Shown here piece after piece: positions 6,746 through 11,413 of a stretch of 14,811 nt of DNA (positions within the stretch are counted from its first letter, which is position 1; every line of letters begins with the position of its first letter). The position numbers and the translations under genes were made by a program. The DNA lies in IMG/VR virus record IMGVR_UViG_2534681835_000032, positions 1 to 14,811 of that record. One strand, written 5' to 3'. The notes below the pieces were generated by a model. The model was not told the origin of the DNA. It made no database searches and saw only the letters and a program-made list of their open reading frames with translations. This DNA comes from a virus. Lineage: Duplodnaviria; Heunggongvirae; Uroviricota; Caudoviricetes.

Positions 6746-6944
6746 AAAGTGAATTTTGTGATGCGGTGAATGCGGCTAAGCGCACGCGGAACAGTTAAAA
6801 AGCTATTGTCCTTCGTAGCAGAGTTATGGGTGAAATATCCGGCGTTAATTGTTAACTGGTTAACGTCACCTGGAGGCACCAGGCACCGCATCAACAAAGT
6901 TCACTTCAGTGATGAAAGGTGAGAGAAAATGTTGAATGTAGCTA

Positions 6945-6973
6945 TTGAAAACCAGAACGGGTGGAATTATAGT
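6945..6973 (+). promoter_or_regulatory. Near-consensus sigma70 promoter TTGAAA-N17-TATAGT
   Basis: -35 TTGAAA (6945-6950), 17-bp spacer, -10 TATAGT (6968-6973); predicted transcription start near 6980. Confidence 0.45.
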
Positions 6974-6979
6974 GCACCT

Positions 6980-7057
6980 GCACCTCATAAAACGGGTGCC
7001 GGGATTTGCACCCCGATGATCACTAGAGCGCATAACCGCGCCAAAGCGGTTTTTTTA
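6980..7057 (+). ncRNA. Candidate ~77-nt small RNA / leader transcript upstream of the Rha gene
   Basis: Delimited by the promoter at 6945-6973 and the terminator at 7034-7057; internal hairpin GGGTGC(6994-6999)/GCACCC(7008-7013); carries copy 1 of the bipartite motif TTTGCAC...TCACTAGAG in the single-stranded stretch before the terminator. Confidence 0.35.
7034..7057 (+). terminator. Candidate intrinsic terminator (AACCGC-GCCAAA-GCGGTT + T-run)
   Basis: 6-bp GC-rich stem with 6-nt loop followed by a run of T residues; short stem, so moderate confidence. Confidence 0.4.
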
Positions 7058-7222
7058 TGCGTAAAGCGCAGCCACATTCAGATTATGGTGGGGCGTATGG
7101 GGCCGTTTTCGGGCGGGCCGGATTCTCTAGTGACCGGTAGTGCAAACCCTGTACGTCTCACCACCCATGAGATTTGCACCTCCGGTGGCGAGTTTACCAA
7201 CTTATCACTAGAGGCTGCCATC

Positions 7223-7777
7223 ATGGCTACTATCCCTACCCTTTCTCACCCTGACGTAACCATCGAAAATGGTCGTGCTGTCACTACGTCTGTTGCAGTT
7301 GCAGAGTTTTTCCGCAAGCTGCATAAAAACGTCATTCAAAAAATTGAAGCTCTGGAATGTTCCTCAGAATTCACTGAGCTTAATTTTAAGCCAAGTGAAT
7401 ACACCGACTCAACCGGGCGCAAACTCCCAATGTACCAAATCACCAAAAACGGCTTCGTTTTCCTGGTGATGGGCTTCACCGGCAAAAAAGCCGCTGCATT
7501 TAAAGAAGCCTACATCGCTGAGTTCGATCGCATGGAAGCAGAGCTACGCCAGAATAATACCACTCCCACAAACAAAATCATTCCGGGCGATGGGCGCACT
7601 CTGGTTGTTCGCTTCGACAAATTCGGCAACGTCGAATTCACTGAAACCGTTCCTGATGGCGCTCTCGTCTGTACCCTGGACACTTTCCGCCTTTATCTGG
7701 AGAAACAGGGCTGGACTCTTGTAAACCGAAGCGCAATTAAAAATATGACCGTCGAGCAGTTGCTGAGTATTAAATAG
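7223..7777 (+). CDS. Rha-family phage regulatory protein (Phage_pRha domain), 184 aa
   Basis: N-terminal region (LSHPDVTIENGRAVTTSVAVAEFFRKLHKNVIQKIEAL...SEFTELNF...MYQITKNGFVFLVMGFTGKKAAAFKEAYIAEFDRME) matches the Rha domain; SD GAGG 8 nt before ATG 7223. The track ORF extends in frame to 6929, but that extension is rich in rare codons (AGA, CTA, GGG) and contains promoter, terminator and repeat elements. Confidence 0.6.
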   Translation: MATIPTLSHPDVTIENGRAVTTSVAVAEFFRKLHKNVIQKIEALECSSEFTELNFKPSEYTDSTGRKLPMYQITKNGFVFLVMGFTGKKAAAFKEAYIAEFDRMEAELRQNNTTPTNKIIPGDGRTLVVRFDKFGNVEFTETVPDGALVCTLDTFRLYLEKQGWTLVNRSAIKNMTVEQLLSIK

Positions 7778-7823
7778 TTTTCTGGAATTTTCTTAATACG
7801 AGAAATTTATTAAGGAGATAATT

Positions 7824-8045
7824 ATGATTGCTCATCACTTCGGAACTGATGAAATACCACGTCAGTGTGTGACTCCTGGCGATTATGTTCTTCATGAAGG
7901 CCGGACATATATCGCCTCGGCAAACAATATTAAAAAGCGAAAACTTTATATTCGTAGCCTGACTACAAAAACATGCATTACTGACTGCATGATTAAAGTC
8001 TTCCTCGGTCGTGATGGTTTACCTGTAAAGGCGGAGTCATGGTGA
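7824..8045 (+). CDS. kilR: Killing protein KilR (cell-division inhibitor), 73 aa
   Basis: [76 protein letters not shown]; strong SD AAGGAG 6 nt upstream; size and position match Rac kilR. Confidence 0.75.
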
Positions 8046-8215
8046 TGACTAAGAAAATAAAATGTGCTTACCACCTTTGCAAAAAAGACGTTGAAGAAAG
8101 CAAAGCTATTGAAAGAATGCTTCACTTCATGCACGGGACTTTATCAAAAGACGAACCGAGAAAATATTGCAGTGAAGCTTGTGCCGAAAAAGACCAGATG
8201 GCACACGAACTTTAA
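8039..8215 (+). CDS. ydaE: Small Cys-rich (zinc-binding-like) protein YdaE-like, 58 aa
   Basis: [61 protein letters not shown] with CxxxxC ... CxxxC; overlaps the kilR stop (ATGGTGATGA); SD AAGGCGGAG. Confidence 0.65.
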
Positions 8216-8288
8216 TTAATTGACTATTCGAAACTGAATTTATGCCAGCAATGGCAGGGATTCGCTCAACCTTAATTAAGGAGAAAAA

Positions 8289-8565
8289 ATGATTACCAGT
8301 TATGAAGCCACTGTTGTAACTACCGATGACATTGTTCACGAGGTTAATCTGGAAGGAAAGCGTATTGGCTACGTGATTAAAACAGAAAATAAAGAAACCC
8401 CCATTCACTGTGGTTGATATCGATGGTCCATCAGGCAACGTAAAAACACTTGATGAAGGTGTCAAAAAAATGTGCCTGGTGCATATCGGAAAGAATCTGC
8501 CCGCAGAAAAAAAAGCCGAATTTCTGGCAACTCTGATTGCAATGAAATTAAAAGGTGAAATCTGA
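8289..8565 (+). pseudogene. racC: racC interrupted by a +1 frameshift in a C5 homopolymer (8398-8402)
   Basis: ATG 8289 (SD AAGGAG) reads MITSYEATVVTTDDIVHEVNLEGKRIGYVIKTENKETP then hits TGA at 8415-8417 (42 aa). Removing one C restores ...ETPFTVVDIDGPSGNVKTLDEGVKKMCLVHIGKNLPAEKKAEFLATLIAMKLKGEI ending at 8565 (91 aa). Span length 277 = 3n+1. Confidence 0.6.
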
Positions 8566-8665
8566 AAGAAATAGCCTGCGTATGGCGCAGGCTATGAACA
8601 GTGTGTATCCGGCAAGATTATTCACTGAACAAACGAATTTTAATCTGAGTTGAGGTTAAAAAACA

Positions 8666-11413
8666 ATGAGCACCGATAAACAAGTTTACCCACTGTATTA
8701 CGAAGCAAAAAATGACAAAGTAAGAAAACGTCTCGGTATTAAAGGCGGTTTCTACTGGACTGAAGCGAAAAAATTATCCATTGCCATATCCCGTGGTGCT
8801 GTTGCTATTGACGATGCTGGCTACGATGAAGATGACTTTAAAAAACCCGTTCGCGTAAATTTCCCCGTCGTGAATGACCTTCCACCGGAAGGCGTGTTTG
8901 ATACTGAATTCTGCAACCGCTATGAAAAAGGCGGGGAAGATGGCATCACCATGATGGCTATATCCTTCAATGACAACATCAACGGTGAAGATGCCACAAC
9001 TGCTGGCGATGACAACGATGACCCGGACGGAACTATTCCGGATGATGTGGAGAAAAGCGAATCCCCGGACAGCGACGATGACTGTTCTGAGTGTGAAATT
9101 CCCGTCGCCACTCTGAGCCTTACTCATCGCTTCCTTCACCTCTTCTTCTTCAGCAAGGATGAAGATGGAAAATACCGGCATCACGCCACACCAGAACAAC
9201 GCAATAACGTGATCCGTATGGAGATGGACACAGAGGACAGTTACCTTCAGAGCCTGCTTACTGCTGTGCGCGCCGCACATCATGAACTGGATAAACTGAC
9301 GAACTATCACCTTAGTCGCCTGGCTGAATCTGTAGGGAAAGCATTCCCCCACTCTGCAAATCATCGCATCAGCCCGGCTGAATTCGACAAGTTCATTTCC
9401 ACCTGGATGAAAACTGACTACCTTGATCAGGGCCTGCTGACAAAAGAATGGCAGAACGGAAATTATGTTTCAGGAATTACCCGTACGCCTTCCGGTGCTA
9501 ACGCTGGCGGCGGAAATATTACCGATCGTGGTGAAGGATTCAAACATGATAAGACATCACTCGCACGAGATGTAGCCACCGGCGTTCTGGCCCGTTCAAT
9601 GGATGTGGATATTTATAACCTTCATCCGGCACACGCTAAACGTGTCGAGGAAATTATCGCTGAAAATAAACCGCCCTTTTCTGTTTTCCGCGACAAATTC
9701 ATCACCATGCCTGGCGGGCTGGATTATTCCCGCGCCATCGTGGTTGCGTCCGTAAAAGAAGCACCAATTGGGATCGAGGTTATCCCTGCGCATGTCACTG
9801 AATATCTGAACAAGGTGCTGATTGAAACCGATCATGCCAACCCTGATCCGGAAATCGTGGATATTGCCTGCGGTCGTTCCTCTGCCCCGATGCCGCAGCG
9901 TGTAACAGAAGAAGGAAAACACGATGGTGAAGAAAAACCGCAACCATCTTGCGCAATGGCAGATAAACAGGCAACGGCTGAAACAGTGGAACCGGATGCA
10001 ACTGAACATCATCAGGACACGCAGCCGCTGGATGCTCAGTCACAGGTAAATTCTGTTGATGCGAAATATCAGAAACTGCGGGCAGAACTCCATGAAGCCC
10101 GGAAAACCATTCCGCCCAAAAATCCTGTCGATGCCGACAAATTGCTGGCTGCCTCTCGCGGAGAATTTGTTGAAGGGATTAGCGACCCGAATGATCCGAA
10201 ATGGATTAAGGGGATCCAGACCCGCGATTCTGTGTACCAGAATCAGCCAGAAACGGAACAGAACGACCAGAAAGCGGAACAGAACAGCCCAAATACGCAA
10301 CAAAACGAGCCAGAAACGAAACAACCTGAACCAGTAGTGCAACAGGAACCGGAAAAGATCTGCACCGCCTGCGGCCAGAGGAGTGGCGGCAACTGCCCTG
10401 ATTGTGGCGCGGTGATGGGCGACGCAACATACCAGGAAACATTCGATGAAGAGAATCAGGTTGAAGCTAAGGAAAATGATCCGGAGGAAATGGAAGGCGC
10501 TGAACATCCGCACAATGAGAATGCTGGCAGCGATCCGCATCGCGATTGCAGTGATGAAACTGGCGAAGTCGCAGATCCCGTAATCGTAGAAGACATAGAG
10601 CCAGGTATTTATTACGGAATTTCGAATGAGAATTACCACGTAGGTCCCGGTGTCAGTAAGTCTCAGCTCGATGACATTGCTGATACTCCGGCACTGTATT
10701 TGTGGCGTAAAAATGCCCCCGTGGACAACACAAAGACAAAAACGCTCGATTTAGGAACCGCTTTCCACTTCCGGGTACTTGAACCGGAAGAATTCAGTAA
10801 CCGCTTTATCGTAGCACCTGAATTTAACCGCCGTACAAACGCCGGAAAAGAAGAAGAGAAAGCGTTTCTGATGGAATGCGCAAGCACAGGAAAAACGGTT
10901 ATCACTGCGGAAGAAGGTCGGAAAATTGAACTCATGTATCAAAGCGTTATGGCTTTGCCGCTGGGGCAATGGCTTGTTGAAAGCGCCGGACACGCTGAAT
11001 CATCAATTTACTGGGAAGATCCTGAAACAGGAATTTTGTGTCGGTGCCGTCCGGACAAAATTATCCCTGAATTTCACTGGATCATGGACGTGAAAACTAC
11101 GGCGGATATTCAACGATTCAAAACCGCTTATTACGACTACCGCTATCACGTTCAGGATGCATTCTACAGTGACGGTTATGAAGCACAGTTTGGAGTGCAG
11201 CCAACTTTCGTTTTTCTGGTTGCCAGCACAACTATTGAATGCGGACGTTATCCGGTTGAAATTTTCATGATGGGCGAAGAAGCAAAACTGGCAGGTCAGC
11301 TGGAATATCACCGCAATCTGCGAACCCTGGCTGACTGCCTCAATACCAATGAATGGCCAGCTATTAAGACGTTATCACTGCCCCGCTGGGCTAAGGAATA
11401 TGCAAATGACTAA
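8666..11413 (+). CDS. recE: Exodeoxyribonuclease VIII (RecE), 915 aa
   Basis: Long ORF whose C-terminal ~600 aa are recognisable as RecE (e.g. [34 protein letters not shown], nuclease domain ...[40 protein letters not shown]...); immediately followed by, and overlapping, recT. Confidence 0.9.

Follow-up and report, generated by a model that had tools for sequence, protein, structure and literature searches.

The RacC protein of the Rac prophage of E. coli K-12 (b1351, RACC_ECOLI, 91 aa) has been described as the strongest blocker of RcaT, the toxin of retron-Sen2, and it also blocks the RcaT toxin of retron-Eco9 (Bobonis et al., bioRxiv 10.1101/2020.06.22.160242). These retrons are in turn set off by RecE, which degrades their msDNA, and racC-recE was called a linked blocker-trigger pair; RcaT blocking was reported for the K-12 RacC protein (bioRxiv 10.1101/2020.06.22.160242). 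RacC proteins constitute a narrow family, found in E. coli and Shigella prophages, in which identities range down to about 55-60% and the conserved length is 91 aa.

The DNA analysed here, referred to as the window, is a stretch of 14,811 nt that is 100% identical to the genome of E. coli O111:H8 strain 8E (NZ_CP077465.1). According to the annotation of that genome, the window covers the early part of a lambdoid prophage, in which replication and immunity genes come first. A Rha-family gene, kilR, ydaE, a racC pseudogene and recE follow, and recE is followed at the 3' side by recT, ralR, a DUF1187 gene, xis, int and the chromosomal gene yebY. The kilR-ydaE-racC-recE-recT set is a Rac-like recombination module in a lambdoid prophage integrated next to yebY. 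The window racC is the same gene as that of K-12, has about 97% DNA identity to it (97.4% when flanks are included) and occupies the same position in the early-left operon, between kilR/ydaE and recE. In contrast, the Rac prophage of K-12 is located at ttcA, and its recE gene encodes a protein of 866 aa, while that of the window encodes 915 aa. The features relevant to this report are as follows (positions refer to the window).

6929-7777: Rha-family gene (annotation of NZ_CP077465.1)
7824-8045: kilR (same annotation)
8045-8215: ydaE (same annotation)
8278-8283, + strand: Shine-Dalgarno sequence AAGGAG, read in the sequence and conserved in K-12
8289-8565, + strand: racC pseudogene, 277 nt versus 276 nt in the intact gene, labelled 'hypothetical protein, frameshifted' in NZ_CP077465.1
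8289-8417, + strand: truncated racC reading frame, 42 aa, consisting of 38 native RacC residues plus IHCG and a stop
8398-8402, + strand: C5 homopolymer, in which one C is the inserted base and C4 is ancestral (alignment to K-12; genome counts)
8403-8565, + strand: out-of-frame racC remnant corresponding to RacC residues 39-91 (FTVVD...KGEI), recognised by protein-level identity to the C-terminal half of the K-12 protein
8410 (start), + strand: mechanically called GTG reading frame of 51 aa within the racC remnant
8415-8417, + strand: premature TGA stop created by the frameshift
8464-8470, + strand: A7 tract in racC, of wild-type length in the window and a frequent frameshift point of other alleles
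8507-8514, + strand: A8 tract in racC, of wild-type length in the window; A9 in a sub-lineage that also carries C5
8666-11413, + strand: intact recE gene for exodeoxyribonuclease VIII (915 aa), published as the retron trigger that is paired with racC

The Rha-family gene occupies the place of sieB in K-12. Within recE, identity to K-12 is only about 90% over 9408-10258, and the segment 8674-9407 has no reported alignment. The gap between racC and recE contains a perfect 10-bp inverted repeat (8571-8595, ATAGCCTGCG-TATGG-CGCAGGCTAT) that is conserved in K-12. A promoter and terminator scan of the interval 7700-8800 scored this hairpin only as a minus-strand terminator-like site, and found neither promoters nor terminators on the + strand inside racC.

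Read directly in the sequence, the Shine-Dalgarno element is spaced by 5 nt from the racC start codon (ATG, 8289-8291). The zero frame crosses the five Cs, which lie in the context ACCCCCA, and stops at the premature TGA after 42 codons, giving the product MITSYEATVVTTDDIVHEVNLEGKRIGYVIKTENKETPIHCG. From 8377 onward the +1 frame stays open as far as the TGA at 8563-8565, and the two frames overlap over 8377-8414. The +1 frame reads ...KKPPFTVVDIDGPSGNVKTLDEGVKKMCLVHIGKNLPAEKKAEFLATLIAMKLKGEI, also written out as ...PFTVVDIDGPSGNVKTLDEGVKKMCLVHIGKNLPAEKKAEFLATLIAMKLKGEI. Pairwise alignment to K-12 MG1655, in which racC is intact and 276 nt long, revealed CCCC at the same site. The C-run is the sole length difference inside the gene; because K-12 has four Cs, the window carries a 1-nt insertion that converts C4 into C5. 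Alignment and annotation therefore agree with the preliminary description, which held that racC is split in its C-run just upstream of recE and whose coordinates (ATG at 8289, C-run at 8398-8402, 42 codons, TGA at 8415) proved exact. Its further statement that deletion of one C restores a 91-aa protein is also borne out, as the restored sequence exactly matches a protein found on at least 1000 public contigs, and falls into the same 90% cluster as RACC_ECOLI. Restored RacC is thus similar to the family over its full length. The frame present in the window ends after 42 codons, however, and the locus is a pseudogene of the RacC family rather than a functional member. RefSeq already flags the C5 allele as a pseudogene. 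The possibility had been raised that the 42-aa form is the product conserved among orthologues; the conserved product is the 91-aa protein.

The C5 state is rare. A 64-mer carrying C4 between the same flanks occurs exactly in 1402 of the 1729 complete E. coli genomes that bear racC, and most genomes lacking an exact match differ by substitutions that leave the length unchanged. C5 is present in three of the 1729, or about 0.2% of copies; in the query with the C5 65-mer, 1459 genomes were matched, three of them with C5. Given the overwhelming prevalence of C4 in complete genomes, C5 is the derived state. Exact copies of the 65-mer, which has the run at its centre, occur in strain 8E, in O45:H2 strain FWSEC0003 and in strain 2014C-3061, and the gene is annotated as frameshifted in all three. 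Among complete genomes, the 421-nt racC haplotype is likewise confined to these three when at least 99% identity is required; the best matches outside them are 97.4% identical. Carriers of the module include some enterohaemorrhagic-type E. coli, namely O111:H8 8E/DEC8E, O45:H2 FWSEC0003 and 2014C-3061, along with draft assemblies numbering about 100 or more.

Long-read assemblies err most often by indels in homopolymers, and the assembly of one carrier, 2014C-3061, contains other frameshifted genes nearby (e.g., copD). The true genome might on this account have four Cs and an intact racC, as the preliminary description had allowed, but the chance that this is so is vanishingly small. All 16 other fetched loci bearing the module have C5, although they come from separate assemblies that include drafts of the short-read era. 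A DEC8E draft contig (AIGJ01000044.1), evidently an independent sequencing of the same strain as 8E, matches the window over 13,523 nt at 100% identity, C5 included. Moreover, the exact 42-aa product is recorded on 82 contigs in NCBI, ENA and Logan assemblies, one of which is named for E. coli DEC8E, and C5 was found in each of the ten loci fetched for carrying this product. Taken together, these observations exclude an assembly artefact for practical purposes. Confinement to a single haplotype, as observed here, is likewise not expected of errors.

We consider instead that a genuine, heritable C4-to-C5 insertion has inactivated racC in one lineage of the Rac-like module, and assign this reading a probability of about 0.85. 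It corresponds to the real inactivating mutation that the preliminary description listed among its options, and the comparison of C-run length across related prophages proposed there supports it, as C5 is present in all 17 haplotype copies examined (the window and the 16 fetched loci) and C4 dominates elsewhere. A C4 copy of the haplotype was not found among these 17. An unbiased check was made on contigs selected only for an exact 915-aa RecE, 24 of which were read from 172 index blocks. None of the 24 had a called 91-aa racC; they collapse into two contexts, and the representatives of both carry C5. Strain O111:H8 7-55 62A was considered as a C4 sister and set aside, as its racC lies in a classical Rac at ttcA and has a different haplotype, which makes it uninformative on the immediate ancestor.

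With one exception, the C5 loci are 99.9-100% identical from kilR to the DUF1187 gene (4.8 kb). The exception (L013) is a Rac prophage at the ttcA site, in which identity to the window extends from 7897 to approximately 10200 and the sequence is mosaic or divergent beyond. An identical core in divergent surroundings points to movement of C5 by recombination between Rac-like prophages rather than to a second origin. The mutation accordingly arose once, and has been passed on thereafter both by vertical inheritance and by recombinational transfer between Rac-like prophages. It is young, since the remnant 3' of the shift is identical at the protein level to intact alleles.

The surroundings of the module differ among carriers. 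FWSEC0003 matches the window only from position 6907 onward, and in this strain the same module is joined on the left to nifJ-ompN-uspF-nleC. In L013, the module is found at ttcA together with a Rac-type integrase. These differences indicate that recombination or inversion has taken place between Rac-like prophages. In FWSEC0003, nleC, a type III effector gene adjoining the prophage, is itself annotated as frameshifted (6312-7299 of the fetched locus L001).

A second lesion has accumulated within the haplotype. In two independent assemblies, 2014C-3061 and the fetched locus L017, the latter a representative of the contigs selected for the exact 915-aa RecE, the A8 tract equivalent to 8507-8514 is replaced by A9. 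This additional frameshift does not compensate for the first, and is the kind of lesion that a dead gene would be expected to acquire.

The C5 allele resembles prfB-type programmed +1 sites in that a +1 shift is needed and the tRNA could re-pair in the +1 frame. The two frames overlap, exactly wild-type RacC would result if tRNA-Pro slipped by +1 from CCC to CCA on the sequence ACC-CCC-A, and CCC-N sites are known as weak +1 frameshift sites. It is nevertheless very unlikely that full-length RacC is made from C5 by programmed or functional ribosomal frameshifting. Unlike prfB-type sites, the racC arrangement is not conserved, as its frequency among complete genomes makes clear, and it lacks both a stimulatory Shine-Dalgarno-like element and a slow A-site codon. 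The sequence upstream of the C-run is AAAAUAAAGAAA, which contains nothing similar to a Shine-Dalgarno element, and the A-site codon is AUU, which is neither rare nor a stop. The local RNA fold around and downstream of the run is no better than that of shuffled sequences (z = -0.41). The flanks of the C5 run equal those of the C4 consensus, so that nothing has co-evolved with the insertion, and the A9 frameshift of the sub-lineage does not compensate for it. Spontaneous slippage of tRNA-Pro on CCC-A may yield traces of full-length RacC, which would be a leak and not a design.

Reversible changes in the length of the C-run might alternatively switch racC on and off, as in phase-variable contingency loci. 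The run is a homopolymer, the population harbours many racC alleles that differ in homopolymer length, and one of them, P0133 (81 aa), has C3. Mononucleotide contingency tracts, however, typically comprise at least 7-8 units; at 5 nt, the racC run is well below useful switching lengths, and is also short for transcriptional slippage. Nor does its length vary among close relatives, where such a tract would be expected to vary: all 17 copies of the haplotype have C5, the 24 contigs with the exact 915-aa RecE are devoid of an intact called racC, and C4 prevails overwhelmingly in the rest of the species. Switching of this kind is therefore extremely improbable. A slippery tract permitting phase-variable or frameshifted expression, the remaining option of the preliminary description, finds no support in a run that is fixed in its haplotype, absent elsewhere and free of any recoding signal. 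The C5 allele of racC is a case of ordinary lineage-specific gene decay, not a recoding or switching device.

The probable consequences for the protein were evaluated by structure prediction. An AlphaFold model of restored RacC, built on 22 sequences, features one compact domain (pLDDT 86.6, pTM 0.75), with strands at residues 5-9, 16-21, 24-31, 39-43 and 48-51, and helices at residues 54-69 and 72-88. Truncation at residue 39 costs the protein two of the predicted strands and both helices, leaving three strands and four foreign residues. As the 42-aa peptide would retain only the first three predicted beta-strands, it is reasonable to infer from the model that RacC function is lost in the C5 allele. 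A Pfam search with restored RacC gave nothing above threshold; DUF2969 was rejected as the family of RacC, its score being sub-threshold (E = 0.005, 17.6 bits versus a cut-off of 25). Compared with PDB by Foldseek, the model had no significant match (best E = 0.37, TM below 0.5). As modelled, this retron blocker has an uncharacterised fold.

RacC activity could in principle survive as a split gene, if the 42-aa peptide and the 51-aa peptide starting at GTG 8410, made by termination-reinitiation, retained it together or separately. The GTG lies 5 nt upstream of the TGA at 8415, an overlapping geometry that permits coupling, and the 51-aa frame is called by some annotators and recorded on seven contigs. 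Yet GTG 8410 is not preceded by a Shine-Dalgarno sequence, the predicted fold is a single domain in which the split would separate strand 3 of the sheet from strand 4, and the A9 frameshift destroys the C-terminal piece as well in the sub-lineage that carries it. We regard a functional split gene as scarcely credible, and loss of RacC through the C5 insertion is retained as the preferred reading.

Frameshifting in racC is not limited to the C5 haplotype. Approximately 250 variant RacC proteins were mapped on the three frames of K-12 racC, and the points at which they switch frame are the C-run, the A7 tract and the A8 tract. Frameshift alleles other than C5, located at the C4, A7 and A8 tracts, are each found on tens to about 150 contigs. 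A7 and A8 are the main frameshift points of these public alleles, some of which occur on 50-150 contigs. In some alleles encoding 90-91 aa, the 15 codons that separate A7 from A8 are translated in another frame, and the original one is regained at A8. These are compensated double frameshifts, and they hint that selection on full-length RacC, or on its C-terminal helix, persists in some other lineages.

The many homopolymer lesions across racC fit selection that is relaxed or fluctuates in prophages that are largely silent. In view of the numerous frameshift alleles that have arisen independently at the racC homopolymers, the loss of racC is most likely the decay, assumed to be neutral, of an accessory gene whose prophage operon is mostly silent. 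The same allele series could be read differently, with racC as a recurrent mutational target rather than a randomly decaying gene. Its tracts would yield many independent on/off and frame-swapped alleles, among them the compensated double frameshifts, in which the C-terminal helix is kept, and the loss of the blocker with retention of the RecE trigger might then result from a conflict over a prophage anti-retron factor. This is quite unlikely; if true, disarming of the blocker could benefit the host, or low-level tract slippage could tune the dose of RacC.

Viewed as neutral decay, the C5 allele is similar to the ordinary homopolymer frameshift pseudogenes of cryptic prophages, which PGAP labels 'frameshifted': a single-base indel in a short mononucleotide run was inherited clonally, and a further indel followed. 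It does not differ materially from them; the lost gene here is, however, a known anti-defence factor.

In the window, recE is intact and the racC blocker is truncated. The 65-mer search detected one racC copy in strain 8E and two in FWSEC0003. As translation from ATG 8289 would end at TGA 8415, the RcaT-blocking RacC would be lost and the RecE trigger kept. Taken alone, the C5 finding matters little; the residual interest lies in the broken blocker-trigger pair and in the series of racC homopolymer alleles. The frameshift alleles found across E. coli could be used as a natural allele series for the RcaT-blocking function. The prophage lineage described here, having kept the trigger and lost the antidote, is predicted to be sensitive to RcaT-type retrons on induction or after transfer.
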